Shown in pieces: positions 8,058-63,858 of a stretch of 64,000 nt of DNA; the stretch's first letter is position 1, and each line of letters starts with the position of its first letter. The notes beneath the pieces are model-generated. The model had not been told where the DNA came from. It saw only the letters and a program-made list of their open reading frames with translations, and did not search any database. The stretch is taken from IMG/VR virus record IMGVR_UViG_3300028393_000049; one strand, 5' to 3'. The translations under genes were made by a program, and so were the position numbers. The stretch comes from an uncultured virus (IMG/VR IMGVR_UViG_3300028393_000049) (taxonomy: Duplodnaviria; Heunggongvirae; Uroviricota; Caudoviricetes).

Positions 8058-8282
8058 ATGTTATCTTTTAAAGAGTTTATTGTCGAGAAAAGACCCGTTA
8101 TATCAACAGATGGTCCTGACCTTAGACGAAGGCTGTCTAGAGATGGTTGGGTTTCCAGTGGTGGAACAAACCACGAAAAGTTTAAACATCCAGATAAGCC
8201 AACTCCAATTCTTCTCCCATATCATAGAGATATTAGTATTGGTGTTGCTCGACAGGCACATAAGATTGCTGGATATATCTAA
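8058..8282 (+). CDS. HicA-family RNase domain with capsid-targeting-like N-terminus
   Basis: L..DGW....GGTNHEKFKHP...ILLPYH.DISIGV pattern; MLSFKEFIVE start; CATAAATA at 8030. Confidence 0.75.
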   Translation: MLSFKEFIVEKRPVISTDGPDLRRRLSRDGWVSSGGTNHEKFKHPDKPTPILLPYHRDISIGVARQAHKIAGYI

Positions 8283-8333
8283 ATTAATACTTGACATTCG
8301 TTCACAGAGATACTTGGATAAAAAAGAAATTAA

Positions 8334-8409
8334 ATGCGAGTAGTTCAATTGGTAGAACCTTCTGCTCATAACAGAACAGTTATCGGTTCGAACCCGGTCT
8401 CGCATACCA
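8334..8409 (+). tRNA. tRNA with CAT anticodon (elongator Met or Ile2)
   Basis: ATGCGAG/CTCGCAT acceptor, loop CTCATAA, encoded CCA. Confidence 0.88.
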
Positions 8410-8445
8410 AGTCCTGTCTCGCGTACCAACATCAAAGGATATATA

Positions 8446-8616
8446 ATGCTCAGTAGCGTAGACTTTCAAATCAGTACCGTTTTTGTTAATGAAATCAATA
8501 ATATAAAAACAGTATTGAAATATAATAATGTTTCTGAAAAGAAATCTATTGAAATGCTAGCTGCTAAACATTACCTTGAAGAACGACTAATCGAAATCAA
8601 AAATAAAGATAAGTGA
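8446..8616 (+). CDS. small hypothetical protein
   Basis: AAGGA RBS, 56-aa ORF read manually. Confidence 0.5.
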   Translation: MLSSVDFQISTVFVNEINNIKTVLKYNNVSEKKSIEMLAAKHYLEERLIEIKNKDK

Positions 8617-8831
8617 GAAATAAAATGAAATATGGTGAACTTGTTAATGCAATCGGACTTATCGTATTGTTTGTCCTATTAGCTATTATTAGTCCAATAT
8701 TAACTATTTGGGCTTGGAATACTTTGTTTGGTGCATACGTTGCTGTCGAACTTACTTGGAAGACTTGGTGTGCTGTTATTCTTTTAGGCGCGTTCTTTAA
8801 GACTACGATACAGCGAAAGAAAGCAGAATAG
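8613..8831 (+). CDS. small membrane protein
   Basis: two hydrophobic segments, IWAWNTLF. Confidence 0.6.
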   Translation: MRNKMKYGELVNAIGLIVLFVLLAIISPILTIWAWNTLFGAYVAVELTWKTWCAVILLGAFFKTTIQRKKAE

Positions 8832-8833
8832 AG

Positions 8834-9022
8834 TTGGGCGATGTTGAGTGTATCAGATGCAGTTGGATAGGATACCTCGACGAAATCAACTCAATAAAAG
8901 ATAACAATAAATGTTGTCCTGAGTGCGAAGGTTTGATTGAAGAAATATCAAACAACAACTTGATAAATACATGCAAAAACTCAACTGGAGATATGCATGT
9001 CAATCAAAGATTTACAAACTAA
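8834..9022 (+). CDS. small Zn-ribbon protein
   Basis: CxxC ... CPEC. Confidence 0.45.
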   Translation: MGDVECIRCSWIGYLDEINSIKDNNKCCPECEGLIEEISNNNLINTCKNSTGDMHVNQRFTN

Positions 9023-9611
9023 AATAGGTGTAACTGCCGATGGTGCTTTCGGTAAAGGAACTTTACAGGCTGCTGCGAAGTTTTTTAATCTAACCAATAA
9101 TCGTGCAGCCCACTTCTTCGCACAGACAGCACATGAAACTGGCGACTTTCGATTATTCTCTGAAAATTTAAACTACTCCGTTGAAGGATTGCTTGGAACT
9201 TTCAAGAAGTATTTCCCAGACACCGCCACTGCTTCAAAATATGCTCACAACACAGTAATGATAGCTAACAAAGTTTATGCTAATCGTATGGGCAATGGAG
9301 ATGAAGCATCTGGCGATGGTTGGACATATCGTGGTCGTGGTGCTATTCAGTTAACAGGTAAAGCTAACTATCAGGCATTTTCTTCTCATATCAATCGCCC
9401 AGATGTTATGACTAATCCTGATATTGTTGCAACAGAACTTGCTTTCGAATCTGCTATATTCTTCTTTGATAAGAACAATCTCTGGACAATATGCGATAAA
9501 GGCGTTGATGATGCTACCATTACTATCGTGTCAAAAAGAATTAATGGTGGTACATTGGGTCTTGAAGATCGTAAGGCAAAGACAAAAAAATATGCAATTC
9601 TTCTACAATAG
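8997..9611 (+). CDS. GH19 endolysin
   Basis: AHFFAQTAHET, ENLNYS, YRGRGAIQLTG, INGG. Confidence 0.92.
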   Translation: MSIKDLQTKIGVTADGAFGKGTLQAAAKFFNLTNNRAAHFFAQTAHETGDFRLFSENLNYSVEGLLGTFKKYFPDTATASKYAHNTVMIANKVYANRMGNGDEASGDGWTYRGRGAIQLTGKANYQAFSSHINRPDVMTNPDIVATELAFESAIFFFDKNNLWTICDKGVDDATITIVSKRINGGTLGLEDRKAKTKKYAILLQ

Positions 9612-9719
9612 GGCTTGACTTTCTCTAAACAATAGAGTACTATATACAAATGGACCAAGTGTCCAGCATATAATGAATACTGTGGATACAAATCATACAA
9701 AAATAAGAGGGTACTACAT

Positions 9720-10667: not shown

Positions 10668-10673
10668 ATAGAG

Positions 10674-10702: not shown

Positions 10703-13454
10703 ATGCGTAATATGCTATGTTCAATGAACCTCTTGGTCCTGCCGTTGGCATATTGATAGCATTATTTTCATTGTTATTGTTAACATTTGTTGTTGAAATA
10801 GAAGTTACTGTTGGAGAACCTTTGTCTCCTTTTCCTCCTTTTTCTTTCATTTTAGTATTATTGCCAGTATTATTAGCAAGATCGGTTGTCTTCTTATCAA
10901 AGTCTGGTGCTTTTACTTGTTCAATACCAAGCTTTCCACTAGGTCCACGCTTAAGTGGCATAATAGCTTCTGCTCCAGCTTCGCCCATAAGACCCTTCTT
11001 GCCTTCGCCATAACCAAATAATGTTGGCTTATCGACAATACCACCATCAGCAAACTTTCTAACCCCACCCTTATCAAAGGCAGACCCCAAAGCAGATTTC
11101 ATATCTGGCTGTGAATTTTCATTTGGTGCAGGGACTGCATCTGGTGGGACATCTTCTTGTGGTGCGCTCATAGCATCTTTTGCAGCCAATGCAACATCGA
11201 TACCAACGCTTGCCGCAGTTCCTACACCAGGAACAGTACTTGCAAGACCACTGGCAGCTTCCAGACCCGCTCCAACAATATCACCCTTCATAAGACGACC
11301 AATAGCTAATGCGCCGCCTACGAGTGCTCCAATTACAGGTATTTTCTTCAATAATGATTTACCAACAGCTTTACCAGCTATTTTAGCCAAACCTTTACCG
11401 CCAACCTTTAGTAGTCCTCTTTGAGCTACTCTGGCTAATCCTCTTCCACCAACTTGTCCAATTTCTTTTCCTGCAAATTTAGAAAGAACTGATGATCCCT
11501 CTTTTTGCATAAATTTTGAAACTATTCCACTAGAACTTTTTCCTGCAAATTTTGAACCAGCATCTTTTCCTAAAACTTTAGAAATAATACCTCCACTTTT
11601 TCCTCCAGTAATTTTTGAAAAAAGTTCTTGTCCTTTTTTACCTAAAATAGATTGTTCTTTTTTAATAAATCTTCCGTCAGGTCCTCTCAATTGTTTTTTT
11701 CTAGAAAATGCTTTTTGTAGTGGACTTTCAGCTTTTTTTGTTTCTGAAATAAATGGTTCAGCGTCTTTTTTAATAAATCTACCACGAGCATCTCTTTTTT
11801 GAGTTGCGGCTTTTTGTTTTTGTTGTGGTTCTAAATCTTGAGAAGATTGTTTTGCTTCAGGTTTAGATTTTTGTTTTTTTCGTGGTTCTGAATCTTGAGA
11901 AGATTGCTGCGAAACAGGTTCAGCTTTTTGTGTTTCAGGTTCAGATATTTGAGAAGGTTGTTGTGAGACAGGCTCAGATATTTGAGAAGGCTTCTGTGTT
12001 TCGGGTTCAGATACTTGATAAAGTTGTTGTGAAACGGGTTCAGCATCTTTTTTAATAAATCTACCACGATTATCTCTTTTTTGACCTGAGACAGATTCTG
12101 TTTGTTGTGAGACAGGTTCAGCATCTTTTTTAACAAATCTACCACGGGCATCTCTTTTTTGAGTTGCAGTAGGTTCTGTTTGTTGTGAAACAGGTTCAGC
12201 ATCTTTTTTAGTAAATCTTCCGCTAGAATCTCTTTTTTGAGTTGCAGTAGGTTCTGTCTGTTGTGTCTGTTGTGTCTGTGATGGTGTTTCAGATACTTGA
12301 GAAGGTTGTTGTGAAACAGGTTCAGCAACTCTTTCACTAGTGTCTCTTGTTTGTTTTGATGTAGGTTCTGTCTGTTGTGTCTGTTCTGGTGTTTCAGATG
12401 GTTTTCGTGTAGGTTGTGTTGAAGTTTGATTAGCAACTCTTTCACTAGTGTCTCTTGTTTGTTTTTCTGTTACACCTTTAGGCATCAGAGAACTTAGCTT
12501 TTCAGCTATAGCATCTGCTAATTTTGTAACAACAGAATCTGAAATGCTAACAATAGAAACATCTTTTCCTTTACCTCTGGAAGAACCAGATGGACCAGAA
12601 GGTGCTGGTTTTGCATCAGTAGCTTTTCCCGCAGATTCTTCTTTGAGACCTTGAACTCTATTTTGTTCTTTTTGAGCAGTTTCTTGTTCTCTTTGCATTT
12701 CATTACTTCTGGCATATATTCCAGTAATGTCTGCGCCTTCAGCAACAGTTTTTAGTCCTTGTCCAAGACCTTTTACTCCCGCCGTCTTGAATGCTTCCAT
12801 TCGGCTAGGTCTGTTTCTAAATCTTTCTTGTTCGGCAAGATAATCTTTTTCAGAATGTTCTTTTTTAGTTTTTGTATTAAAATATTTACCGCTGGCTTCG
12901 TCTTTTACAATTTCAGGTTTGCCACGTAATTCTTGGTAATTTTTAATAAAACTTTCACCAATAGTACCTTGTTTGGCAATACGTTCTTTAGCAGATGCCT
13001 TTAGTCTTTCACCAAAAGTCATTTTTTCTGTTGGTGCTGTAAAATCTGTTTCTTTAGATTTGCCTTGATCTGGTTGTACAGCAGTTCCAATAGTAGTATC
13101 TAAGGTATCATTTAAATTACCTATTGATTTATTTAAATTTTTCATAGTCTGAATTAAAGACTTGAAAGTATTTTGCATTTCTTTAGTTTGAAGATTTGGT
13201 GTTGTTGGTGCTTTAGGCGAACTATCTGCTTTCGCTTTTCCCGCTACAGTTGAAGTTGGAGCAGAAGAAGTTGAAGAAGGAGCACTAGTTTCTGCTGGTG
13301 AATCTTTCTCCATTTGAGCAGAAACTTGATCCAACATTTTGGAAAATTCTGTCGTTACTGGTTTTTTACTTTTAGTGTCAACCCAAACTCCCGCATCATT
13401 TTTGATGTAAGATTCGTTTTTACCGAGTATTATGGGAGTTTGGTTATTTGCCAT
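10701..13454 (-). CDS. tape-measure/baseplate-hub-like protein (gp29 position) with internal repeats
   Basis: LKKIPVIGAL...G/A-rich segment, FADGG...GEAGAEAIMPL motif of tape-measure C-termini; follows gp26/gp51. Confidence 0.65.
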   Translation of the reverse strand: MANNQTPIILGKNESYIKNDAGVWVDTKSKKPVTTEFSKMLDQVSAQMEKDSPAETSAPSSTSSAPTSTVAGKAKADSSPKAPTTPNLQTKEMQNTFKSLIQTMKNLNKSIGNLNDTLDTTIGTAVQPDQGKSKETDFTAPTEKMTFGERLKASAKERIAKQGTIGESFIKNYQELRGKPEIVKDEASGKYFNTKTKKEHSEKDYLAEQERFRNRPSRMEAFKTAGVKGLGQGLKTVAEGADITGIYARSNEMQREQETAQKEQNRVQGLKEESAGKATDAKPAPSGPSGSSRGKGKDVSIVSISDSVVTKLADAIAEKLSSLMPKGVTEKQTRDTSERVANQTSTQPTRKPSETPEQTQQTEPTSKQTRDTSERVAEPVSQQPSQVSETPSQTQQTQQTEPTATQKRDSSGRFTKKDAEPVSQQTEPTATQKRDARGRFVKKDAEPVSQQTESVSGQKRDNRGRFIKKDAEPVSQQLYQVSEPETQKPSQISEPVSQQPSQISEPETQKAEPVSQQSSQDSEPRKKQKSKPEAKQSSQDLEPQQKQKAATQKRDARGRFIKKDAEPFISETKKAESPLQKAFSRKKQLRGPDGRFIKKEQSILGKKGQELFSKITGGKSGGIISKVLGKDAGSKFAGKSSSGIVSKFMQKEGSSVLSKFAGKEIGQVGGRGLARVAQRGLLKVGGKGLAKIAGKAVGKSLLKKIPVIGALVGGALAIGRLMKGDIVGAGLEAASGLASTVPGVGTAASVGIDVALAAKDAMSAPQEDVPPDAVPAPNENSQPDMKSALGSAFDKGGVRKFADGGIVDKPTLFGYGEGKKGLMGEAGAEAIMPLKRGPSGKLGIEQVKAPDFDKKTTDLANNTGNNTKMKEKGGKGDKGSPTVTSISTTNVNNNNENNAINMPTAGPRGSLNIAYYA
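11650..12470 (-). repeat. coding repeat array (KRDxxGRFxKKDAEP, QQPSQxSE, KQTRDTSERVA units)
   Basis: four near-identical KRDxxGRF copies plus a degenerate fifth; DNA-level repeats visible. Confidence 0.9.
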
Positions 13455-19288: not shown

Positions 19289-20307
19289 TGAACCAAGATC
19301 ATAATGATAATAATTTTCTAGGAAGAAACGGTTTCTATTATTTCTTCGGTATTGTAGAAGATAGAGATGATCCACTTACTCTTGGCAGAATTAAAGTAAG
19401 AGTGTTTGGAACTCATCCAGATGATAAGACTTTGGTTCCAACTGAAGATTTACCTTGGGCAATGCCAATCCAACCGATTAATTCTGCCGCAGCACATGGT
19501 GTTGGGCATTCTCCTGTTGGTCCTATTCCAGGAACACACGTTTTTGGTTTTTGGGCGGACGGTAGAGATTGCCAAATTCCATTTATTTTAGGTACTATTG
19601 CTGGTGGTACAGGTCAGTTTAATTATGGCGTACCCCAACAGGATAGTTTAGACGGACAAATAGCAGCATCTCCAGTTGGTCCAAATGGCGCACCAATCAA
19701 TCTTCCAAAAGGAAGTAAAGCAATTCCACAAAGAGCAGCGACATTTTCTAAACTAGTTCAAGATAGATACAAATTAACAGATTATCAAGCATGTGGTTTA
19801 ATTGGAAACCTTTGGCACGAGTCTGGTGGTTTTAGGGCTATTAGAGAATATGGTAAAGGCTCTGGTCCACAAGATCAGCCTCCTCCAAAAGGAACCAAGA
19901 ATACAGGTTACGGATGGGTCCAATGGACAAATTCAAGACTTGATGACTTTTTAAATTTCTGCGAGTCTACAGGACATGCACCACAATCCGATGAAGCAAA
20001 TCTTGGTTTCTTTTTAAAGGAATTAGATAAAGCCAAAGTCATCAAGGGGCTAAAGACAAACGCTCCAGTTACAGTTAGTGGGTATTGGGCAGGAACATAT
20101 GATTGCTCTAATATTGAAGGAGCAACGAGATATGTTATGGCTGAGTTTGAAAGACCAAAGAAAGGTCTAGATCATATTGGAGAACGCATTCAATATGCAA
20201 AAATGGCATTAGTCGCTATGAATAAAACTTCTGTTCCTCAAGGCGGAGCACCAAGTAAAGACCCAAATGCACAGGTTCCAACAAATAATAATCCGAAAGC
20301 ACAATAA
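19288..20307 (+). CDS. gp5: gp5 N-terminal OB-fold fused to phage tail lysozyme domain
   Basis: VEDRDDPL.LGRIKVRVFG.H, GFWADG...Q.P; GLIGNL.HESG, GYGWVQWT, FERP. Confidence 0.85.
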   Translation: MNQDHNDNNFLGRNGFYYFFGIVEDRDDPLTLGRIKVRVFGTHPDDKTLVPTEDLPWAMPIQPINSAAAHGVGHSPVGPIPGTHVFGFWADGRDCQIPFILGTIAGGTGQFNYGVPQQDSLDGQIAASPVGPNGAPINLPKGSKAIPQRAATFSKLVQDRYKLTDYQACGLIGNLWHESGGFRAIREYGKGSGPQDQPPPKGTKNTGYGWVQWTNSRLDDFLNFCESTGHAPQSDEANLGFFLKELDKAKVIKGLKTNAPVTVSGYWAGTYDCSNIEGATRYVMAEFERPKKGLDHIGERIQYAKMALVAMNKTSVPQGGAPSKDPNAQVPTNNNPKAQ

Positions 20308-20309
20308 TT

Positions 20310-36053: not shown

Positions 36054-36106
36054 TCATTAATTCAGCATCCAGTATATCAGGTGCTTATGTGATTGTCAAG
36101 TGATTT

Positions 36107-36568: not shown

Positions 36569-37074
36569 TACATTTTACCTTCTAATGCTTTTTGTGTTGT
36601 TATTAGCCATTCTTGTAAAGTTCTTAATTGTTCGGAGTTTTTTTCACAGATTCCGTAGTTTTCGACAACGATAGCGAGAGCGGTATTGTCTTTAATGGTT
36701 GTGGGGGTTGCATCAGAATAGCTGGCGGCGTTAGAACTATCACCGTTGGTTGCAGAGACGTTGTGGAGCTGCACCCAGCCAGTAGACATGAGATGGTCAG
36801 AAGGAACAACTGAGGTCGCAAGATTAACATAAACATATTCCTTTTTAGTAATAGTGACCACTTTATCAACATACTTAGTCACAACGGCGTCATTGTTTTT
36901 ATTTATTTTTATTTGTGCTTCAGCTAATTTTTTATTAAGTTCAGCAACATACTTTGCTTCAGCTTGTTTAGAATGATCTGCACCTTTTAAGTATCCAAAC
37001 GAAAATAAACCACCGCACAGAAGAGCGATGATTAATATTCTATATGGAAGAGGGATTAGATTAAACAAAGACAT
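36568..37074 (-). CDS. i-spanin (Rz-like)
   Basis: N-terminal TM, coiled coil, ENY..C....EQL..LQEW end; contains embedded lipoprotein gene. Confidence 0.75.
   Translation of the reverse strand: MSLFNLIPLPYRILIIALLCGGLFSFGYLKGADHSKQAEAKYVAELNKKLAEAQIKINKNNDAVVTKYVDKVVTITKKEYVYVNLATSVVPSDHLMSTGWVQLHNVSATNGDSSNAASYSDATPTTIKDNTALAIVVENYGICEKNSEQLRTLQEWLITTQKALEGKM
36624..36830 (-). CDS. o-spanin (Rz1-like) lipoprotein embedded in the i-spanin gene
   Basis: LLAGC lipobox, Pro-rich mature part, AGGA 8 nt upstream of ATG. Confidence 0.75.
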   Translation of the reverse strand: MLILRPQLFLLTISCLLAGCSSTTSLQPTVIVLTPPAILMQPPQPLKTIPLSLSLSKTTESVKKTPNN

Positions 37075-37295
37075 TACTTAATACCGAGACCATTAATGCG
37101 TCTCATCATACCAGTTAAGTCTGTATTGTTTTTTTGATAAGCAGCGTTATCATCTTTATACTTGTTTCTAATTTCTGGACGAACAACAACGGTCTTCTTA
37201 TCATCACCTGTACCAACTACACCAGCAGTTGAAGTCGCTGGAGCACCGCCTACTGCGCCATCTTCTGCCAATATAAATTCTACGAAAGACATCAT
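37074..37295 (-). CDS. small protein with capsid-targeting-like N-terminus
   Basis: MMSFVEFILAE. Confidence 0.55.
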   Translation of the reverse strand: MMSFVEFILAEDGAVGGAPATSTAGVVGTGDDKKTVVVRPEIRNKYKDDNAAYQKNNTDLTGMMRRINGLGIK

Positions 37296-37306: not shown

Positions 37307-37699
37307 TTATATTTTTGCTAAACATTCTTCAACATATTTATCAGAAGGAATATCTGCACTGATTAATGTTTTAGGAATGAACCCAATATTTTCTATTCGA
37401 CTTGGCATATAAGTTAAAAATTCTAGAAAAGGCTTAAGCTCAGAATGCATATTTGTCATTTTAAAAAATAACATTCTTGTGGCAGGAAGAACACCAAATA
37501 CATTATAAATGATAATGATATGGTTTAAAATTAGACGTTCTTTTAACTCACCAGTTTCTTTATAACGTTTTAAAAGTCTCTTAATATATCTAAACCTGTT
37601 TAAATCTTCAAGAAACTCTTGAGTATCAAAACATTGTGGATTATCATAATATTTTGCGGCATATAATAAGAAATTGGTTTCGTCTAATTTTTCATTCAT
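37307..37699 (-). CDS. conserved T4-like hypothetical protein
   Basis: YAAKYYDNPQC...EF.EDL.RF.YIKRL, RLILNH. Confidence 0.75.
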   Translation of the reverse strand: MNEKLDETNFLLYAAKYYDNPQCFDTQEFLEDLNRFRYIKRLLKRYKETGELKERLILNHIIIIYNVFGVLPATRMLFFKMTNMHSELKPFLEFLTYMPSRIENIGFIPKTLISADIPSDKYVEECLAKI

Positions 37700-55785: not shown

Positions 55786-56720
55786 TATTGGAACTCCGCA
55801 TCATGCATGATTTCAAGAAGAGCAGCCGCTGTATTGATTTCCTGATCAGCAACAAATGCCGCCTTATATTGATAGTTTGCAATATGAAGGACAAGATGAG
55901 GAATTGAACGAGGTGTCAACAAAGAAGACGATGCATCATACAACTTGCGGAATAGAGTAGAACTGTCGATATCAGAGTTTTCTGCTACCCATTTACGAAC
56001 AGTAACGAAGTCCTTAGCCTTCATGCTTTTGATTAAAGAACCAAAGATTTCATCAGACATGTTTATAAGAATGCCAGTATCAATCTTACCAGTCACCGAA
56101 TATCGCTGAAGTTCATTGATAACTCGACGCCAGTCAGGATAATACTTCATAATAAATTCTGCTACAGCAGACTTATCATATTCTACATTTTCTGTATCTA
56201 GGATAGTACCAACTCGTGTAAGGAAACGAGGAGCAAGCTTTGTAATTTCCTTCTTGCCTAGCTTGAATTCAACCACCGAACAACGAGAGTGTAGAGGTTC
56301 AATGATACGGGTCTTGAAGTTACAGGTCATGATAAAACCGCAATTCTTAGAATACTCTTCCATAAAGTTACGAAGAGCAGCTTGAACTGTAGGTGTAAGG
56401 TGATCTGCCTCGTCTAGAATAACATACTTGCGTCCACCAACAAAAGATACAGTGGAGGCAAAGTTCTTAATATCAGTACGCAAGGTATCGATGTTTCCAT
56501 TCATAGAAGCATTGATAACAATATAATCGCATCCGATTTGCTCAAGCATTGCCCTAGCAACGGTGGTCTTACCTACGCCAGCACTACCAGTTAGAAGTAG
56601 ATTTGGAACATTGCCCTGTTCTACAAACTGTTGGAACGTAGCCTTTAGATTGTCAGGCAAAACAGTATCTGCGATAGTTCGAGGACGATACTTTTCACAC
56701 CAGAGAAATTCTTCGCTCAT
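55785..56720 (-). CDS. gp44: clamp loader ATPase gp44
   Basis: EKYRP, GVGKT, DEAD, SRC. Confidence 0.95.
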   Translation of the reverse strand: MSEEFLWCEKYRPRTIADTVLPDNLKATFQQFVEQGNVPNLLLTGSAGVGKTTVARAMLEQIGCDYIVINASMNGNIDTLRTDIKNFASTVSFVGGRKYVILDEADHLTPTVQAALRNFMEEYSKNCGFIMTCNFKTRIIEPLHSRCSVVEFKLGKKEITKLAPRFLTRVGTILDTENVEYDKSAVAEFIMKYYPDWRRVINELQRYSVTGKIDTGILINMSDEIFGSLIKSMKAKDFVTVRKWVAENSDIDSSTLFRKLYDASSSLLTPRSIPHLVLHIANYQYKAAFVADQEINTAAALLEIMHDAEFQ

Positions 56721-56792
56721 AATATAATCCTTAAAAACATAATCTCCTCAGTGGAGATTACTGGGTAACATACTTCTTATACAAAGAAACAG

Positions 56793-57164
56793 TTATGGAT
56801 ATAACTTCATTGTTCCTTTGTAAACTCTAACACCAGTACCATCATATTCCCACTCTCTTAGAGCAGGATCAGCGTGGAATTCTTCAGTACCATAATCAAT
56901 AAAATTAATAAATTCTAGTTTCTTTTCATCTTCCCAACCAGAAAGATAGACATTATCTTCGTCGAATATTTCTAAGTATTCTTCGTCAGTAACTTCACGA
57001 ACAGAACTGATAACTTCATCAATATGATGCTGAGAAAACTCCTTGAAGTTATCGTCAACTCCAAGCTTACAAGTCAATTCGTCCATAGCATGTTCCTTAG
57101 ACTTTGCTTCGACAACATATCGAATGCGGAACATGCTAATTGTTTCAACAATATACTTTTCCAT
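56793..57164 (-). CDS. hypothetical protein
   Basis: KYIVETISMFR.RYVVE, EFSQ.H..E. Confidence 0.6.
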   Translation of the reverse strand: MEKYIVETISMFRIRYVVEAKSKEHAMDELTCKLGVDDNFKEFSQHHIDEVISSVREVTDEEYLEIFDEDNVYLSGWEDEKKLEFINFIDYGTEEFHADPALREWEYDGTGVRVYKGTMKLYP

Positions 57165-57165
57165 A

Positions 57166-57384
57166 TTATCCACCAACACTATAATAAGCAATGATACGAC
57201 GAGCAGACTTAATGTGCTTACGGATCATCTTCTTGTCCAACTCTGGATCACGTTCAAAGATCAAAGGACATTCTTTTGCAAGATCATCTTCCCAGTCGGC
57301 AATATTTTGAGTAAGCATATTGATAATAATTTCATCCATAGTTTCATATGGAAGGTCGATAGTATATTTCATTTCACTCTCCAT
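57166..57384 (-). CDS. hypothetical protein
   Basis: behind TTGACA-N17-TATATT promoter. Confidence 0.5.
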   Translation of the reverse strand: MESEMKYTIDLPYETMDEIIINMLTQNIADWEDDLAKECPLIFERDPELDKKMIRKHIKSARRIIAYYSVGG

Positions 57385-57432
57385 TTAGTTATTGAGATCA
57401 TAATATAGCATACGTTATTTCAAATGTCAACC

Positions 57433-57924
57433 CTATTCGTCAAGGTTTGTATGCTTGACATTAACATGAGTGTCACCACGAAGATGAGCTGCCATTACAG
57501 CATGATGTCCATCAGCCACATAATGCTCACCGTTATGAGTAACAACATGAATATTCTGAGGACTAGTATCGGCTATTTTATCTTTTAGTTTTTCTGGGTC
57601 ATTTGTTCTATTAAAAGGTTGTGTAGCGCGAAGGCTTTTAATAGACATCTTTACCAAAGGTTTTGAACCTCTTTCACGAGCATATCCTATCTCGCCTTTT
57701 GGGTGTGAGGACACTCTCTTATAATAACTGTCCTCCATAGACCTGACCTTCTTACGATCATATGTACTAAGAGGAATATGCCCACCTTTTTTAACATCGC
57801 CTTGTTTAGCATTCATCCAAGGTCCGTAATTTGTTCTCTTACTGCCGTATCTACGAGCAACACGGTTAGCCAATTTAGCAGGATCAACTTTACGTTCTTC
57901 TAAAAATTCTATAAAACTTAACAT
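57433..57924 (-). CDS. ParB/Srx-like domain protein with capsid-targeting-like N-terminus
   Basis: MLSFIEFLEE; LRATQP, IHVV....HYVADGHH. Confidence 0.7.
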   Translation of the reverse strand: MLSFIEFLEERKVDPAKLANRVARRYGSKRTNYGPWMNAKQGDVKKGGHIPLSTYDRKKVRSMEDSYYKRVSSHPKGEIGYARERGSKPLVKMSIKSLRATQPFNRTNDPEKLKDKIADTSPQNIHVVTHNGEHYVADGHHAVMAAHLRGDTHVNVKHTNLDE

Positions 57925-57976
57925 TAAAAATCCCTCATAAAAACAGTTAAGTTATTTATGAGGGATTAAAAGTTGA

Positions 57977-58097
57977 CGGCGGCACAGGATTCGAACCCGA
58001 CCAGACTTGGTTTATGCTTCTCAGGGATCGCTCCCATCCGCCTTCACCTATTAAGGAAGTTGGACCTTCCTCGCCCTGCCCATGCAGCGTTCCGCCG
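57977..58097 (-). ncRNA. tRNA-like non-canonical RNA of about 120 nt
   Basis: CGGCGG/CCGCCG terminal stem, GGGTTCGAATCCT T-arm, three internal hairpins, no canonical anticodon arm. Confidence 0.65.
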
Positions 58098-58105
58098 ATA
58101 ATTAG

Positions 58106-58195
58106 TGGAGGAGGGAGTGGGATTCGAACCCACGGTGGACTCTCACCCACGCTAGTTTTCAAGACTAGTTCCTTAAACCGCTCGGACATTCCTCC
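58106..58195 (-). tRNA. tRNA-Ser(TGA)
   Basis: loop CTTGAAA, long variable arm, encoded CCA. Confidence 0.9.
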
Positions 58196-58208
58196 TTGTG
58201 CTTTTTAT

Positions 58209-58520
58209 TTATATTAAGTTACGCATAACTCTCTGACCACGATTACTACGACCTGCTCTCTTTTCTGGTCCGCATTGAATATATCCCTTTCTTTCTAATG
58301 CTGCAAAACGTGCAGTGATACTAGAGTATGGGAAATCAGAAAACTTATCAAGAAGATCGTCGGCAACACAACCAATTTCGCCATATTCTTTGATTGCTTT
58401 ATGTACCATCTCTTCAAGAAATGTTGAATTTACTTTATTCGCAGAATCTTTGCTTGTTTGTGGATCAGTTTTACGCACAAGTTTATTTACTTCTGTACCA
58501 TATACCATATTAATCTCCAT
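58209..58520 (-). CDS. winged-HTH-like protein
   Basis: RKTDPQTS, SSITARF..LE.KG. Confidence 0.55.
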   Translation of the reverse strand: MEINMVYGTEVNKLVRKTDPQTSKDSANKVNSTFLEEMVHKAIKEYGEIGCVADDLLDKFSDFPYSSITARFAALERKGYIQCGPEKRAGRSNRGQRVMRNLI

Positions 58521-58561
58521 AATAAAGTTACAATCTTGTGGACTAATGATTATTAATTTTT

Positions 58562-59731
58562 TTAGATATTTAGCATTTCAGGATTAACTACAACTTCACC
58601 AACTTTACCAAACTCATTATGATAAGTCACGCAAGAAGTTTGTTGTTCGCTCATCCAGCCACCACGAGCAGCATAAGAATCAGCAGCAGCTAATGTTGGA
58701 TGCTGAATTACCTTCACACCAGGAAACTCCTTGACATCTTCATGATGATAATGTCCAGTATGAATATAACGCTTTGTAGTTTCGCCCCAAATCTTGTGGA
58801 ACTTAGCTGCAAATAGAAGTGGCAATCCTTCCTTCTTCTTCTTATGTCCGTGATGGAAACCAAGCATTACCTTGCCATGCTGATAAACATAATATGGAAT
58901 TTCAGAATTATTAACTGTTAGTCTAGGTTCGTTCTCATAAAGAGCGGTGAACAAATGACGAAGCCAAACTGAAGAAGCTAGATCGTGATTACCTTCAGCC
59001 ATGATGAGATGAACCTTCTGGTGCTTCATAAGAGCAATATCAATAACACGACGAAGAGCACGGATAGTAGAATTTACCATCTGAGAATAATTACCATCAG
59101 CTTCAACCATATGATGACTTGTTGGTGTAACTTGAGCTAGACCATCATAGTGAAGGAAGTCACCAAGTTGATTAATAATACAAGTATCTGCTTCAGGAGA
59201 CATTGTAATCATTTGTTCAAATGCACCAATCAGTGTTCTTTCTGCGATATCTCTATCCCAGTCTGCTCCACCTTCTTTGTGCCAAGCTAACATACCCATA
59301 TGATAATCGGTAAATGTATACATGTTACAAAGATGAGAAGCAGAAGTCTTCGGTGCTTTGATAGGAGGTAAGCGTTCGATTGGATTTGTTGCATCTTCAA
59401 TAGCATCAAGAATCATTTGCATACGATATGATTCGTCTGCCTTAGTCTTTACCCACTGAGAAGTAATGTTACCTTCCGAATCATAATTAGTAGACGTACC
59501 CTTAATCAAATAAGGAGCAGGGGCAATCTTTGTCATATCATGTTCAGGAGAATAGCCGCGCATAGCAGCCTTAGTTTTTAGTCGCCTCATTGCATTACGA
59601 ACAGCATCAGGATTGATTCCTAACTTTCTTGCTGCTGAACTGTAACCACCAAATTCATTAATGAGTTCAATATATTTTAACTGAAGCTCAGTAGCAAATT
59701 GGTGTAAGGCGGGATCAACGATAGGTTCCAT
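58562..59731 (-). CDS. calcineurin-like metallophosphoesterase with N-terminal HTH
   Basis: DYH, GD, GNHD, HGH, GHYH; AARKLGIN. Confidence 0.8.
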   Translation of the reverse strand: MEPIVDPALHQFATELQLKYIELINEFGGYSSAARKLGINPDAVRNAMRRLKTKAAMRGYSPEHDMTKIAPAPYLIKGTSTNYDSEGNITSQWVKTKADESYRMQMILDAIEDATNPIERLPPIKAPKTSASHLCNMYTFTDYHMGMLAWHKEGGADWDRDIAERTLIGAFEQMITMSPEADTCIINQLGDFLHYDGLAQVTPTSHHMVEADGNYSQMVNSTIRALRRVIDIALMKHQKVHLIMAEGNHDLASSVWLRHLFTALYENEPRLTVNNSEIPYYVYQHGKVMLGFHHGHKKKKEGLPLLFAAKFHKIWGETTKRYIHTGHYHHEDVKEFPGVKVIQHPTLAAADSYAARGGWMSEQQTSCVTYHNEFGKVGEVVVNPEMLNI

Positions 59732-59791
59732 AATTTATACCTTTATACATTCATGGTTGTTCTATATATAGCATACTATAATTTCAATGTC

Positions 59792-59828
59792 AAGCTAAAT
59801 AATCATTTAAGCTAAATAATCATTTAAG
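59792..59828 (+). repeat. 17-bp tandem duplication containing late promoter CTAAATA
   Basis: AAGCTAAATAATCATTT x2. Confidence 0.85.
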
Positions 59829-59837
59829 GGAAACAAA

Positions 59838-61487
59838 ATGGCAGAACTAGATTATGGCGAACCAGAAGACGCGAAAGCCGCAGAACTAAAAGAACTGGCT
59901 CAATGCTTGGCTTTTGCTTACTTTGCCGCTTTTCCTAATATTGGACCAAAACACGATATTAATTTCTTTACTATGTTTTCTAACGAAGCTACAGCAGCAA
60001 CGACGAAACCAGGTGAGGTTATTAATAGAATAAAAGCAACCGATTGCTTATCTAAAAGGTTTCCTATGAATGGACAAGTTATTAGAAAAGGGTTCACAGT
60101 AGGAGAAACTGAAAAAACTAAAAAAGAAACATATAGCTCTCTTGCTAAGAAAGTATATAACGTTGCTAAAACTTTTATTAGTTCAAATAGATTAAATGGC
60201 GCAACATCATCATATAAGTTTTTAAATCAGAAAGACCCATTTTTCATTCTATTGAAAAACAAATCTCTAGATAATATAAGAAGCGCAATGAATATCTCAT
60301 ATAAAAGCGATGTTTTATCTGCTATTGATGTTATATTTGTTAAAAAATCATCAATGACCAAAATCGAAACCAACTTTATAAAATATTTCACAGACCCAAT
60401 AACAATTATAAAAAATGCAGCATCTGGCGGTAACAATTATAAAAATGTTATCGGAAGGTACATGGATAGCGGGGAAATTTTTCCTATATCTTTAAAGTTA
60501 CCAACAGGAGTAAAATCAAATATAAGCATAAAAAAAGTTATGTTTGCAAGCGGAAAAGATGCATCTGATGATATTGATCCCTACACAAAATTTCTTGCTA
60601 TCATATTACATGACCCATCTAAAACAAGAGAATATATTAATAAAGTTGTACATATAAATTTTGATAAATTTTCTAATGGTGATGTTCTTAACTGGGTATT
60701 TCCAGTATCATTAAATTATAAGAATTTAATTGATCCAGAAACACAAAAACCTATGTCAACATATAATTTAAATTTTAACCTGTTTGCTCAAGGACACAGT
60801 GCTGGGTGGAATGGTCAGTTTGATGCATCTTCAAAACAATACCAAGACACACAATGGGTCGGAGGAATTGGTATTACTACATTTGAAACTTTTGCAATGA
60901 AATATCCACAGTACAAGGCAGTAATTTCAAAAGTAGTAAACTATAGGCTTGCAGTTTTTGATAAGATGTGTGCTAAATTTAAGAAAGAAAATCCTGAAGA
61001 ATTTAAAAAAGTAGCTACAGAATATACCGCAGCTAGACGAGATTTAGCAACACAAGAAATATTATATTTAAAAAAGAAAAATGAAACGACAAAAAAATTC
61101 TTTGACAAGTATGCTAAATTAACCGAAACAGAATTTAAAGGAACAATTTCTCTATACAGTGAGTATATGCTTTCTGTCATAAATGAAATAAGAAATAAAG
61201 TAAAACCTTATTCTGGTCCAAATAATACAAACGAATCTAATATCGCAGACCATTATGCCCATGCTCAATTGTCATTTTTTATGTATATGGGTGGTCGGGG
61301 AGCAGATTTGTTTTTTAAACAAAGAATGTTCATGACTATATTTGGTGCTATCACTAAGAAAGCACATAAGCTATATGCAGTGGATGATTATATGGGAATG
61401 AAGAATATTATTCAGGAAACAATTCAATTAAAAAGAACTAAGTTTGTGGCTGAATTTTCAACACCGCCTCATTATATCATCTCATAA
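59838..61487 (+). CDS. large hypothetical protein, possible PD-(D/E)xK-like nuclease
   Basis: 549-aa ORF; IDVIFV ... PISLK motif pair. Confidence 0.6.
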   Translation: MAELDYGEPEDAKAAELKELAQCLAFAYFAAFPNIGPKHDINFFTMFSNEATAATTKPGEVINRIKATDCLSKRFPMNGQVIRKGFTVGETEKTKKETYSSLAKKVYNVAKTFISSNRLNGATSSYKFLNQKDPFFILLKNKSLDNIRSAMNISYKSDVLSAIDVIFVKKSSMTKIETNFIKYFTDPITIIKNAASGGNNYKNVIGRYMDSGEIFPISLKLPTGVKSNISIKKVMFASGKDASDDIDPYTKFLAIILHDPSKTREYINKVVHINFDKFSNGDVLNWVFPVSLNYKNLIDPETQKPMSTYNLNFNLFAQGHSAGWNGQFDASSKQYQDTQWVGGIGITTFETFAMKYPQYKAVISKVVNYRLAVFDKMCAKFKKENPEEFKKVATEYTAARRDLATQEILYLKKKNETTKKFFDKYAKLTETEFKGTISLYSEYMLSVINEIRNKVKPYSGPNNTNESNIADHYAHAQLSFFMYMGGRGADLFFKQRMFMTIFGAITKKAHKLYAVDDYMGMKNIIQETIQLKRTKFVAEFSTPPHYIIS

Positions 61488-61490
61488 AAA

Positions 61491-61566
61491 TGGTGCTCCC
61501 AGCAGGAATCGAACCCACGACATCCAGTTTACAAAACTGGCGCTCTACCGACTGAGCTATAGGAGC
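61491..61566 (-). tRNA. tRNA-Thr(TGT)
   Basis: cloverleaf, loop TTTGTAA, encoded CCA. Confidence 0.92.
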
Positions 61567-61568
61567 AT

Positions 61569-61642
61569 TGGAGCGGGATACGAGATTCAAACTCGTCTCT
61601 TTAGCTTGGAAGGCTAAGGCACAGTCCCTATACCAATCCCGC
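61569..61642 (-). tRNA. tRNA-Gly(TCC)
   Basis: GCGGGAT/ATCCCGC, loop CTTCCAA, T73-CCA; T-loop variant TTTGAAT. Confidence 0.9.
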
Positions 61643-61664
61643 AACAATTATCATTTAATTATAT

Positions 61665-62339
61665 TTAGAATGTGCTACTTGCTTCTACTGTGATCCAGTA
61701 TGTCAATTCTGCACTGCTGTTCTTATCGATTGAAGAGAAACGAGCAATCTTCTTAGATGAGATCAAAACATTATAATCAGTGTCGATCAACTTTGAAAGA
61801 AATTCTGGCTTAAAGATAGCACAGAACTCAGAATCAACTTCCCCAAGAGCATGACTTAGTGTATGCGATGTTGGGTTCTTACTATCAATTGCACGAAGAT
61901 ATAGCTTACCTTCTTCACCAACAAAAGCAATCTCAGGAACAGCAAGAATGTTGGTTGCCTTTAGAATACCCGACAATGCCTGATATGGAAGATTAAACTC
62001 AATCTCTGCATTTTGCATATTCAGTTCCTTAGTAGGAGGCTGAACAATTAGAGATTCGTCGGCAAAGAAATATCGGCTAGACTTAGTGTCATCGTGGATC
62101 ATGACACTCTTTTCTTCTAGTTCCAATTGAGGACTAGTAAAGATAGAAAGCACAGAAAGAAACTGCGATAGATCATAGATGCACATATCCTTTTCAAAGG
62201 TATCTGGAATAGTTGCCTTTGCTAGGATTGTCTTTTGAGCAGACATTGTAGAAAGCGTATTGCCTCTACGAATAATAACCGATTGGTTAATACTACTAAA
62301 GTTCTTTAGTAGTTGGCTAGTACGTTCAGATAGTTGCAT
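61665..62339 (-). CDS. gp45: sliding clamp gp45
   Basis: LKNFSSINQS, IYDL.QFL, Y.V.IS, YWI..E. Confidence 0.92.
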   Translation of the reverse strand: MQLSERTSQLLKNFSSINQSVIIRRGNTLSTMSAQKTILAKATIPDTFEKDMCIYDLSQFLSVLSIFTSPQLELEEKSVMIHDDTKSSRYFFADESLIVQPPTKELNMQNAEIEFNLPYQALSGILKATNILAVPEIAFVGEEGKLYLRAIDSKNPTSHTLSHALGEVDSEFCAIFKPEFLSKLIDTDYNVLISSKKIARFSSIDKNSSAELTYWITVEASSTF

Positions 62340-62467
62340 TATAAAATTCCTACATGACAAAAATTAAAAATGTTTAGAAGCCCGACCACCTCATCTAAAC
62401 GTGACTGACATCTCCAGTCTCCTCATGATGTGACTATATCACATCTATTTTATTTGTCAAGTCTTAT

Positions 62468-63319
62468 TTACTTCTTTTTTCCTAACTTTGATGGATCGAC
62501 TGTAGCAGAAGCACCAATCGCAGCAATATCAGCAAGAGAGCCACCAAAGATATAAGAGCCAACATGCTGTAGCTTGATCCAAGGACACAACCAAACCTTA
62601 AGACCAATATGTCGGGTCAACTGACAGAACCAATAGTCTTCCGATAGATAACGCTTTGTTCCATTAATAGGATCAATGTCAGCTTGGAAGAACATCATGA
62701 TTTCGCGTGAGCCGTCAAAAGCTGCTGTACGAACATGATCTGGGCGATACATATACTGAGGATATGCTTCTTGATACTTTTCTAGTGTTTCACGCCTGAT
62801 CATCATAAAGCCAGTACCAGATTCCATAATTTCTACAGGCTCTGAAAGAAGGATTTGTGTTTGATTGCCAACTGGATTAAAGACGTAATCGCCAACATAA
62901 TTTTCTAGAATATTTGGGTCTTCATCTGCAACACCAACATCGATGGCTTGCTTAATCTTTTCCCAAGAAATACACTTCTTTGGATAAGGACCGCACATTA
63001 CATCATATTCACTTTCTGGACTCATTAGAGCCAACATAGTAAATACATCTTGTGCATTGAAACCAATATCACTATCGATGAATAGCATGTGAGTGCAGTC
63101 AGAACGCAAGAACTCATCTACGCAATAGTTACGAGCACGAGTGATTAGTGATTCGTTAAAGAGGTAGTAAAACCTCAAGTCAATTCCGTAATGAACAGCA
63201 GCAGCGGAAAGATCGTTTGTGCTACGGCAGAACATACCAGCACATTGACCGCCGTACATTGGTGCTGCAACAAAAAGCTTACGCTTACGTAGTTCGTCTA
63301 GTTCAATCTTAACTTCCAT
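62468..63319 (-). CDS. GT-A-fold glycosyltransferase-like protein
   Basis: ESLITRARN, FIDSDI, GTGFM.IRR, LSEDY.FC. Confidence 0.7.
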   Translation of the reverse strand: MEVKIELDELRKRKLFVAAPMYGGQCAGMFCRSTNDLSAAAVHYGIDLRFYYLFNESLITRARNYCVDEFLRSDCTHMLFIDSDIGFNAQDVFTMLALMSPESEYDVMCGPYPKKCISWEKIKQAIDVGVADEDPNILENYVGDYVFNPVGNQTQILLSEPVEIMESGTGFMMIRRETLEKYQEAYPQYMYRPDHVRTAAFDGSREIMMFFQADIDPINGTKRYLSEDYWFCQLTRHIGLKVWLCPWIKLQHVGSYIFGGSLADIAAIGASATVDPSKLGKKK

Positions 63320-63360
63320 TTCAGTTCCTTTTATAATTTATCATAATGATTGAGGTTAGT

Positions 63361-63858
63361 TTAGTCTTTCGTTGTAGTAAATCTAGCGTTAGCTTTTCTT
63401 TTACTTGGGCGTAGTTCTGTTTGGAATGGGGCATCTGGTCTATTATAAGCTACTCTGCCTAATTTTTGAGTTTTTCTAAAACCAGGATCACCTGTTTTGT
63501 TAGTTCCTTCTACTCTTGCTCCACTAGCATCGTGATGCAATACCGAATCTTGTCCATATGTTTTACCATGACGGTTCATATCATATCTTAGTTTACCAGC
63601 AGATTTTGTACCAGTATTTTTTGCTTGTACTAGTAAGGAGTTTTCTTTTCCACCTTCCCAGTGTCCTATTGCGCGTCTATGTCCGTAACCTTGAGCAGTT
63701 AACTTCTTTTTTAATTCTGCGGTTCTTCTTTCGTTTTCTGCTTTTGGCAATCCTTCGCGTTCAGCAGATATAACAGAAAAGGCACGACCTTCTCCCTTAG
63801 TAGCATTTAATCGGGCTAAAGGATTACCTTCAACAATAAATTCTTTAAAGGTTAACAT
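63361..63858 (-). CDS. basic protein with capsid-targeting-like N-terminus
   Basis: MLTFKEFIVE; ISAER, G.W.G..E.S, YGQDSVL. Confidence 0.65.
   Translation of the reverse strand: MLTFKEFIVEGNPLARLNATKGEGRAFSVISAEREGLPKAENERRTAELKKKLTAQGYGHRRAIGHWEGGKENSLLVQAKNTGTKSAGKLRYDMNRHGKTYGQDSVLHHDASGARVEGTNKTGDPGFRKTQKLGRVAYNRPDAPFQTELRPSKRKANARFTTTKD

Follow-up and report, generated by a model that had tools for sequence, protein, structure and literature searches.

Four otherwise unrelated ORFs on a 64,000-nt stretch of DNA from an uncultured virus (hereafter the window, i.e., the whole stretch analyzed) open with the same short peptide, which is very probably a capsid targeting sequence (CTS) of the T4 internal-protein (IP) type, by which its carriers would be packaged into the head, cleaved, and delivered together with the phage DNA. 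A preliminary description of this DNA had proposed that a tag of ~10 residues routes unrelated proteins into the virion for joint injection. We found that homology to the experimentally defined T4 CTS lends this idea strong support but that the claim of a new kind of system fails, because the tag is that of the known T4 CTS system. The tagging mechanism is already known from T4, and it is the likely cargoes that are new, namely, a SAM-lyase-like protein, a HicA-like RNase, and a ParB/Srx-like protein.

The shared leader and its T4 counterpart

The tag M(L/M)(S/T)FxEF(I/L) opens ORFs that start at position 8058 on the (+) strand and at positions 57924, 63858, and 37295 on the (−) strand, and a six-frame scan of the window returned exactly these four tag ORFs. 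Their translations agree with the N-termini given in the preliminary description (MLSFKEFIVE, MLSFIEFLEE, MLTFKEFIVE, and MMSFVEFILAE, respectively). In the comparison with chance that had been proposed along with the tag, a strict regular expression matched four times in the window and never in 400 shuffles (200 mononucleotide and 200 codon-block shuffles; 0.0 matches per shuffle), while a relaxed version also matched four times, as compared with 0.01 to 0.055 matches per shuffle. A PSSM derived from 60 homologue leaders, with the window's own proteins left out, scored three of the tags at 24 to 26 bits (median maximum of 100 shuffles, 2.9) and that of the 37295 protein, an 11-residue variant, at only 3.2 bits, making it the weakest of the four. 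Two of the start codons are supported by the preceding genes: the ATG of the 63858 gene overlaps the stop codon (TAATG) of an upstream gene that runs off the window edge (3′ end at 63858..64000, (−) strand), and the 37295 gene begins 15 nt past the stop codon of its upstream neighbor. The mature parts belong to different families, range from 62 to 155 aa in length, and have pI values of 9.5 to 10.4, with a pI of at least 9.5 in four of four as compared with 12 of the 86 other ORFs in the window; the earlier statements that the four ORFs are unrelated and that their mature parts are mostly basic thus stand.

The T4 proteins IPI, IPII, and IPIII likewise carry a 10-residue N-terminal leader, the CTS (Mullaney and Black 1996, as related in PMC9026906 and PMC3012670), and are likewise unrelated, small, basic proteins under one leader, with mature pI values of 9.0 to 9.65. 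IPII and IPIII start with MKTYQEFIAE and IPI with MKTFKEF, so that both sets share the initial M, S/T3, an aromatic fourth residue, E6, F7, I/L8, and E10. Specifically, F4 and F7 are present in all four window leaders (Y4/F4 and F7 in T4), and all four end in (I/L)xE (IVE, LEE, and IVE at positions 8–10, and LAE at positions 9–11 of the 37295 protein), just as the T4 leaders end in the gp21 cleavage motif. PMC9026906 describes the first 10 residues of IPIII as enough for packaging and assigns targeting mainly to residues 4 and 7 and processing to residues 8 and 10; the window leaders are conserved at these positions. From this homology, we infer that the four proteins would be packaged, cleaved, and injected. 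The two sets differ at leader position 2, which is Leu/Met in the window and Lys in the T4 IPs, and in that cargoes of the window have recognizable enzyme folds and the T4 IPs do not; moreover, the T4 IPs are experimentally defined, whereas the window proteins are known from sequence alone.

T-even ip loci combine one conserved leader with highly diverse cargoes thought to counter host defenses, according to the review PMC3012670, which cites Repoila et al. 1994 for these polymorphic loci. However, they represent one hypervariable locus with strain-specific cargoes, whereas the tagged genes described here are dispersed over at least 56 kb, and two of their cargo families are old and widespread. 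In the giant phages phiKZ and SPN3US, a prohead protease related to gp21 processes head-internal ejection proteins at a short motif, cutting behind its Glu, and a CTS role has been suggested for the propeptide (PMC5694885), but the motif is A/S-x-E and the propeptides are long and varied, with no uniform T4-type 10-mer. T4 gene 61.1 also opens with a CTS-like leader (MKTFKEFIKE), and no account of its product as a head protein was found in the literature searched; therefore, a leader-like N-terminus may not always mean packaging.

The window is that of a T4-like phage and contains the T4 core genes gp33, gp59, gp32, gp2, gp4, gp53, gp5, gp43, gp44/62, gp45, regA, uvsX, gp41, and gp61; the phage is only distantly related to T4 (DNA polymerase at most 47% identical to that of any cultured phage). 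No gp21, gp22, or gp23 gene lies within the window. A contig that overlaps the window end over 691 nt at 100% identity (G008) encodes the gp22 scaffold (PF25623, 1.6e-63), the gp23 capsid protein (PF07068, 2e-148), and a 76-aa ORF corresponding to the C-terminus of a gp21-type protease, whose tblastn matches (5e-22 and 5e-19) are the tail regions of Peptidase_S77 ORFs. The gp21-type protease of this phage was thus detected through a C-terminal fragment that does not include the catalytic domain. The gene upstream of 63858 is complete in G008, where it encodes 389 aa, ends in DUF6321 (9e-15), and starts with MKTFLDFYED, a leader with a borderline PSSM score of 5.8.

Among public viral contigs, the tag pattern was found in 94 stretches as compared with 2 for a permuted control pattern of equal degeneracy, and 79 of 95 tag matches were located at the N-terminus of an ORF with a length of 60 aa or more and were distributed over 32 unrelated cargo clusters (two of these clusters include a total of 3 matches that merely duplicate the window). 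Many unrelated cargoes in T4-like contigs bear the tag. Peptidase_S77 is encoded by four of the five large tag-bearing contigs, with no protease match in the fifth, which is only 85% complete, and one large contig carries eight tags of the MK(S/T)FxEF type (none for the backwards control).

Cargoes of the tagged genes

The 8058 gene (8058..8282, (+) strand; 74 aa) encodes the leader at 8058–8087 and a mature part of 64 aa (pI 10.35). The earlier HicA label was confirmed by Pfam (HicA_toxin, PF07927; 4.6e-8, 33.5 bits vs a cut-off of 27), and the PDB HicA chains 6g26_E, 4c26_A, and 4p78_C match the protein at 5.6e-5 to 5.4e-4. The family-conserved His in G-x-x-H-(D/E) of HicA from HicAB modules is kept in this cargo: the His of GGTNHEKF aligns with a His present in 27 of 27 relatives examined, its correspondence to the catalytic His of solved HicA structures being ambiguous in the HMMER alignment. 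HicAB modules pair the toxin with HicB, whereas no HicB partner was recognized here in a PHROGs search, in which the neighboring ORFs (8446–8613 and 8613–8828) match no family. The closest HicA relatives are leaderless proteins of 63 to 68 aa whose residue 2 aligns with residue 13 of the window protein, i.e., the 10-residue leader and two linker residues are absent in them. The proposal that the cargoes are captured domains is borne out for HicA only; the SAM-lyase-like and ParB-like cargoes instead belong to old families with the leader in nearly all members. The local context (7227..8409, (+) strand) consists of tRNA-Asn (7227–7300), a homing endonuclease gene (7363–8031; PHROG 314, 2.4e-47), the leader-HicA gene, and tRNA-Met (8334–8409), both tRNAs being called by ARAGORN, and is similar to the tRNA-segB-ipI neighborhood of T4 with its tRNA genes and homing endonuclease. 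As tRNA-Ser (58106–58195) precedes the 57924 gene, two tagged genes sit beside tRNA genes, as had been noted before.

The 63858 gene (63361..63858, (−) strand) encodes a 165-aa protein with the leader MLTFKEFIVE and a 155-aa mature part that starts with GNPLAR (pI 10.43). Its SAM lyase assignment rests on Pfam (S-AdoMet_lyase, PF23780; 3.3e-11, 43.7 bits vs a cut-off of 28) and on the fold: the top Foldseek matches of the AF2 model are 8bb1_E and 7ock, structures of the T3 SAM lyase (gp0.3), which belongs to the same Pfam family, with 8bb1_E as the best (E 9.6e-6, TM 0.61/0.68) and identities of 16 to 18%. PDB sequence searches with this protein returned no match and no usable alignment. In its family, 31 of 31 members have a precomputed S-AdoMet_lyase domain, and Glu (Glu-Lys in 2) directly precedes the conserved GNPL in every one; a CTS-like leader is missing from a single member, and E10-G11-N12-P13-L14 is invariant in the 29 sequences of alignment A1. 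Both this set and the ParB-like set below were chosen independently of the tag.

The 57924 gene (57433..57924, (−) strand) encodes 163 aa, comprising the leader MLSFIEFLEE and a 153-aa mature part that starts with RKVDP (pI 10.06). Foldseek ranks 1 to 27 for its AF2 model (pLDDT 86.5) are all ParB, Srx, SbnI, Noc, or KorB chains (best E 1.4e-3, over ~80 residues), so the earlier ParB/Srx label is supported at the fold level only; the Pfam profile PF08857 stays below its cut-off (15.3 vs 23.6 bits, E 0.023). The motif reads DGHHA, with Ala in place of the Arg of the DGHHR-type ParB/Srx consensus. The leader is present in 47 of 51 family members (50 homologues plus the query), E10 is nearly invariant across the 51 sequences, and one member starts with MKTYKEFLAE. 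The remaining gene (37074..37295, (−) strand), located upstream of primase genes, encodes a 73-aa protein with the leader variant MMSFVEFILAE (11 residues) and a 62-aa mature part (pI 9.52), for which no family was found in Pfam or PHROGs and only three close relatives were found.

Upstream signals and timing

Like the T4 ip genes, the tagged genes of the window are accompanied by late-promoter motifs, with NATAAATA positioned 21 to 40 nt upstream in three of the four. Specifically, the T4 late-promoter-like octamer CATAAATA precedes the start codon of the 8058 gene by 21 nt (8030..8037, (+) strand) and that of the 57924 gene by 29 nt (57953..57960, (−) strand), in agreement with the earlier remark on a promoter adjoining two tagged genes, and the late-promoter-like octamer GATAAATA precedes the start codon of the 37295 gene by 40 nt (37335..37342, (−) strand). 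Among 56 distinct tagged genes, 14 have NATAAATA within 60 nt upstream, as compared with a background of 1.2% (p = 4e-15). The octamer of the 57924 gene falls within the 5′ arm of an RNA hairpin (57929..57967, (−) strand) that has the GAGG Shine-Dalgarno sequence of the gene in its 3′ arm; this hairpin has a predicted fold energy of −18.7 kcal/mol (z −5.38), a stability reached by none of 200 shuffles, and is a candidate device limiting translation to late transcripts. T4 gene e, with its promoter in the 5′ arm and Shine-Dalgarno sequence in the 3′ arm as here, and I-TevI provide the precedent for such a hairpin (PMC3014915).

Competing explanations and a possible route into the host

The leader could load its carriers into the prohead to serve there as components of assembly or of the core, or as filler that condenses the DNA, comparable to T4 gp67/gp68 or bulk IPs, rather than as host effectors. 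All four mature parts being small and basic, the 62-aa mature part of the 37295 protein lacking an enzyme family, and the wide conservation of the ParB-like and SAM-lyase-like families with their leader, which resembles a standing virion component more than a fast-changing arms-race gene, are in keeping with this explanation. We nevertheless regard it as unlikely, since two cargoes have recognizable enzyme folds (HicA RNase and T3 SAM lyase), the 32 cargo clusters argue for accessory roles, and T4 IPI and IPIII act on host defenses, as stated in PMC3012670 and bioRxiv 2022.04.14.488369. A propeptide or sorting signal unrelated to the capsid, which keeps toxic enzymes inactive or sends them elsewhere with no packaging, might be expected of HicA and SAM lyase, as both would harm the producing cell if active, and the AF2 models show the leader, at low confidence (pLDDT 45 to 54), as a short helix standing apart from the fold. 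However, this leader agrees with the T4 CTS at the capsid-targeting and gp21-cutting positions, co-occurs with gp21-type proteases, and belongs to genes that adjoin head genes in some relatives; read directly from the sequence, it is also acidic, has no hydrophobic core, and does not resemble a secretion signal in any respect, and we consider such a role highly improbable.

The similarity might also stem from a shared promoter-RBS-leader cassette that recombination has spread as DNA, without selection for any function of the peptide. Polymorphic T-even ip loci are reportedly thought, after Repoila and colleagues in 1994, to shuffle through conserved flanks, and the 12-mer CTCATAAATAAC is common to the upstream regions of two tagged genes. 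Yet the upstream regions do not align beyond the octamer, and the 30-nt tag DNAs of the four genes differ at synonymous sites (TCT/AGT/ACC, including the Ser codons TCT/AGT, as well as GAG/GAA and GTC/GTT), indicating that the peptide is conserved and not a DNA repeat. The leader peptide is, moreover, kept in SAM-lyase-like and ParB-like homologues that are just 35 to 55% identical, and the cassette, already disfavored, is the least probable of these explanations.

Under the preferred reading of the leader as a T4-type CTS, the four tagged proteins would be made late in infection, as judged from T4, and the leader, through its aromatic residue 4 and Phe 7, would attach them to the scaffolding core that gp22 forms in the assembling prohead. 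A gp21-type prohead protease would then cut after the Glu of (I/L)-x-E at positions 8–10 (9–11 in the 37295 protein), and the small basic mature proteins would be retained alongside the DNA inside the head and pass into the host together with it. T3 produces its SAM lyase only once its DNA has entered the cell, from the first early gene, and the enzyme is not known to be part of the virion, whereas the 63858 protein bears a leader for capsid targeting and would be delivered in finished form. Just as the DNA enters, it would eliminate S-adenosylmethionine or prevent its synthesis, which would blunt SAM-dependent restriction or BREX-type defenses, while the HicA-like protein may cleave host RNA early in the takeover. 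The anti-defense or takeover role of these two cargoes is putative but reasonable.

Four leader-bearing genes and the T4 capsid targeting sequence

Translation of the window bore out the coordinates and N-termini given in the preliminary description for four ORFs. These are the HicA-like gene starting at 8058 on the (+) strand (leader MLSFKEFIVE, 74 aa) and, on the (−) strand, the ParB/Srx-like gene at 57924 (MLSFIEFLEE, 163 aa), the SAM-lyase-like gene at 63858 (MLTFKEFIVE, 165 aa) and a gene at 37295 (MMSFVEFILAE, 73 aa). For the SAM-lyase-like gene, the start codon overlaps the stop of its upstream neighbour in TAATG, which settles its position, and the start codon at 37295 lies 15 nt downstream of the preceding stop. 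The mature parts, i.e., the proteins after leader removal, are basic, as had been remarked (pI 9.5 to 10.4 in all four); a pI of at least 9.5 occurs in 12 of the 86 other ORFs.

A six-frame search of the whole window with a regular expression for the tag returned exactly four matches, all of them the named ORFs. The strict motif had 0 occurrences in 200 mononucleotide and 200 codon-block shuffles, while the relaxed motif occurred 4 times in the window versus 0.01 to 0.055 times per shuffle. IMG/VR viral contigs were scanned with a degenerate DNA version of the tag (Ile fixed at position 8) and with a permuted control of equal composition and degeneracy, yielding 94 contig stretches (95 matches) for the tag versus 2 for the control. 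Chance frequency, one of the outcomes that would have undone the original proposal, is ruled out by the shuffles and the permuted-pattern scan, with the tag well above both. The tag DNAs differ synonymously (Ser TCT/AGT or Thr ACC; GAG/GAA; GTC/GTT), which rules out a DNA-level repeat as the source of the likeness; the conserved thing is therefore the peptide.

The same peptide is familiar from T4. In the translated T4 record, the internal proteins IPII and IPIII begin with MKTYQEFIAE and IPI with MKTFKEFTST, and the window and T4 leaders have in common M1, S/T3, an aromatic residue at position 4, E6, F7, I/L8 and E10. Residues 1–10 of IPIII, the capsid targeting sequence (CTS), are described as enough for head incorporation, with targeting mainly via residues 4 and 7 and processing via residues 8 and 10, and the leader also brings about packaging and delivery of foreign proteins to which it is fused (PMC9026906). 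The prohead protease gp21 cuts after Glu (PMC5694885), and T-even internal proteins are portrayed as highly diverse defence proteins in which only the CTS is conserved (PMC3012670). From leader homology to T4 and these published properties, the tag is, at the level of sequence, the known T4 CTS, found here in a distant relative. Both the mechanism and the one-tag-many-cargoes idea are already in print for T-even phages (PMC3012670, PMC9026906). In open-access papers and on bioRxiv, searching turned up neither a survey of the cargoes that carry a CTS in environmental T4-like phages, or beyond T-even phages, nor any report that a SAM lyase or HicA is packaged.

The 37295 protein is the least certain member: its 11-residue leader variant scores 3.2 bits against an ungapped profile versus 24 to 26 for the other three. 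It has no assigned family and three close relatives only, and a link to one cargo cluster from the contigs (cluster 5) was set aside as weak (9e-5 in a single comparison) and largely leader-driven. T4 gene 61.1 (NC_000866 18966-19130), a hypothetical 54-aa protein starting MKTFKEFIKE, resembles the 37295 gene (window 37074-37295) in lying upstream of primase and in its CTS-like leader. Orthology of the two was not upheld, with no BLASTP alignment and an acidic T4 mature part (pI 5.0), and the likeness remains a lead only. The papers searched gave no account of 61.1 as a head protein; the gene may encode an unrecognised head protein, or it may be a sign that the leader alone need not mean packaging. 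The primase region of the window (35046-36568) comprises two neighbouring ORFs of 153 and 336 aa, both matching PHROG 451, possibly one split gene and possibly two separate ones.

Head genes, late-promoter-like motifs and a hairpin

PHROGs matches in the window include the T4 core proteins gp33 (late regulator), gp59, gp32, gp2, gp4, gp53 and a gp5 hub with PAAR, as well as gp43 polymerase, the gp44/62 clamp loader, gp45, RegA, UvsX, gp41, gp61, NrdAB and Td, together with PhoH, Hsp20, MazG and SAM decarboxylase. None of 50,697 deposited phages has a polymerase more than 46.7% identical to the one encoded here, and the best matches are cyanophages; megablast against cultured relatives, with the 8 kb at 56000-64000 as query, gave no match. 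By sequence comparison, the source is a distant uncultured T4-like myovirus. Among its structural genes, the baseplate hub gp5 (19288-22612) is apparently split into ORFs of 339 and 678 aa, the second having an endolysin-like C-terminal part and being followed by a PAAR protein, and a 917-aa ORF (10704-13454) matches peptidase/endolysin and tape-measure-like proteins.

The head machinery lies just beyond the window on contig G008, which is 100% identical to its last 691 nt and extends 11.7 kb further. Gene order past the overlap agrees with T4: a 76-aa ORF end similar to the C-termini of Peptidase_S77 ORFs on related contigs (5e-22 and 5e-19), the scaffolding protein gp22 (PF25623, 1.6e-63) and the major capsid protein gp23 (PF07068, 2e-148), whose Pfam domain begins at residue 70 and leaves space for a propeptide. 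That 76-aa end is all that was found of the protease for this phage, without the catalytic domain, and the record nearest to the window, the 26-kb fragment G001, had no protease match.

Late-promoter-like motifs accompany the tagged genes. As had been remarked, CATAAATA lies 21 nt before the HicA-like gene and 29 nt before the ParB/Srx-like gene, and tRNA genes flank the former on both sides and precede the latter; in addition, GATAAATA lies 40 nt upstream of 37295. Across the contigs, 14 of the 56 distinct tagged genes have NATAAATA no more than 60 nt upstream, always 20 to 41 nt from the ATG, against a background of 58 in 4,914 sampled windows (1.2%; binomial p = 4e-15). Tagged genes without this motif may be co-transcribed with their neighbours. 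The order at 7227-8409 (tRNA-Asn, a homing endonuclease, the leader-bearing gene and tRNA-Met) is reminiscent of how tRNA genes, segB and ipI are arranged in T4, and two more homing-endonuclease-like ORFs occur at 1323-1952 and 28693-29112.

Directly after tRNA-Ser, a hairpin at 57929-57967 on the (−) strand (−18.7 kcal/mol, z −5.38, 0 of 200 shuffles as stable) has CATAAATA in the 5′ arm, with the ParB/Srx-like gene's GAGG ribosome-binding site falling in the 3′ arm. It looks like the device described for T4 gene e and I-TevI (PMC3014915), which allows translation from late transcripts only: in transcripts that read through from the tRNA, folding would mask the ribosome-binding site, and in those from the late promoter it would not. 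An orthologue with 50% identity retains the late-promoter-like motif TATAAATA but not the hairpin; no hairpin better than shuffles was found upstream of the other three tagged genes, and a terminator scan near 57924 found none by its own rule.

Cargo families

The proposed scan of related genomes and catalogue of cargoes showed that 79 of the 95 contig matches form the N-terminus of an ORF 60 aa or longer, 9 that of a shorter ORF, and 7 are internal to longer open frames. The 79 N-terminal matches fall into 32 clusters with mutually unrelated mature parts, two of which (three loci) come from copies of the window. Pfam recognised DUF6321 (16 members), S-AdoMet lyase, HicA and HAD phosphatase, and assigned no family to most of the 32 clusters. 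Four of five large tag-bearing contigs encode Peptidase_S77, the fifth being 85% complete; one of the five has eight MK(S/T)FxEF-type tags, two of them no more than 1 kb from the protease gene, and a reversed-pattern control had no match in any of the five. DUF6321 is the commonest tagged cargo (16 of 79). Upstream of the SAM-lyase-like gene, a gene on the (−) strand (63858-64000) runs off the window; on G008 (L109:10683-11852) it encodes a 389-aa protein with a borderline leader (MKTFLDFYED, 5.8 bits), a DGNHR-type stretch and a C-terminal DUF6321.

The SAM-lyase-like protein matches Pfam S-AdoMet_lyase at 43.7 bits versus a cut-off of 28. Its AlphaFold model (mean pLDDT 80) had T3 SAM lyase 8bb1_E as the best Foldseek match (E 9.6e-6, TM 0.61/0.68), along with 7ock chains; single-sequence and profile searches of PDB sequences gave nothing meaningful, and tblastn against cultured phage records gave only four weak matches. 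This family and the ParB-like one were gathered via cargo sequence, not via the tag. In all 31 SAM-lyase-like proteins (query included), a Glu (Glu-Lys in 2) directly precedes a conserved GNPL, and residues E10, G11, N12, P13 and L14 are invariant in an alignment of 29. An M-x-(S/T)-F-x-(E/Q)-(F/Y)-type leader is found in every member but P0029, which starts ME-GNPL; some leaders are extended to 31 to 57 residues and retain the L-x-E end. In the 708-aa gp082 of the Synechococcus cyanophage S-SZBM1 (L106:887-3010), encoded between terS and a virion structural gene, an internal FITYREFIAE-GN precedes the SAM-lyase-like domain, which suggests that the domain may be cut from a larger, polyprotein-like precursor by the prohead protease. 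Its neighbour gp084 (L108:629-1126) starts MKTFKQYITE and ends in a DUF6321-like stretch.

The HicA-like protein matches Pfam HicA_toxin (33.5 bits versus a cut-off of 27), is alignable to solved HicA chains and retains the family-conserved His; no HicB partner was recognised beside its gene. Of 1.84 billion representatives searched exhaustively, 64 matched (E ≤ 0.001). Among the 27 of these that were compared, the closest are leaderless proteins of 63 to 68 aa whose residue 2 aligns to residue 13 of the window protein, and P0151 (MLTFKEFLEE) is the sole other leader-bearer. The gene at 8058 is the plainest example of domain capture with a leader added. A second HicA-like protein, on the T4-like, tag-bearing contig G004 (L110:952-1344), lacks a CTS; its N-terminus is a module of 47 residues that begins MALKKGIKVEKEHT and may represent another N-terminal address or domain.

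For the ParB/Srx-like protein, whose motif reads DGHHAVMAA, Pfam matches were all below cut-off. Its model (pLDDT 86.5) resembles the ParB/Srx fold over the C-terminal ~80 residues (Foldseek ranks 1–27, best E only 1.4e-3); PDB sequence searching gave one chance match only, and tblastn against the 50,697 phage records gave no match. Of 51 family members, query included, 47 carry the leader, one of them starting MKTYKEFLAE, close to the T4 sequence; the other four begin at or just ahead of the mature VDP/VDA, and E10 is nearly invariant.

Proposed delivery and its significance

Beside what is observed here, i.e., leader homology, a conserved Glu at the cut site, T4 head machinery in the same phage, the spread of cargoes and late-promoter enrichment, T4 offers a mechanism by analogy. 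The leader would bind the gp22 core and be removed by a gp21-type protease, and the mature protein would stay in the DNA-filled head until ejected into the host. Judging by the cargo folds, the SAM-lyase-like protein could then lower SAM at entry and blunt SAM-dependent defences, and the HicA-like protein could cut host RNA. By analogy with T4, the leaders probably serve in capsid targeting and cleavage; effector roles for the cargoes, read from their folds, are somewhat favoured. More tentatively, and at slightly below an even chance in our estimate, the CTS would be a general plug-in in environmental T4-like phages, with ready-made enzymes from dozens of cargo families entering with the DNA. 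These would include a SAM lyase stripping SAM-dependent restriction or BREX-type defences of their methyl donor before phage expression and a HicA RNase for instant shut-off, with T4 61.1 perhaps an overlooked member.

Work on the CTS has been confined almost entirely to T4 and close kin, where the cargoes are orphans and a target is known for IPI alone. In the lineage described here, distant and uncultured, the tag stands on proteins with recognisable enzyme folds, which provides testable hypotheses on internal-protein function. The leaders in the window supply extra variants for T4-based protein packaging tools, and the leader itself is a simple sequence rule by which virion-delivered effectors can be predicted in T4-like metagenomic contigs. 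A pre-packaged SAM lyase, if true, would precede any expressed anti-restriction gene.
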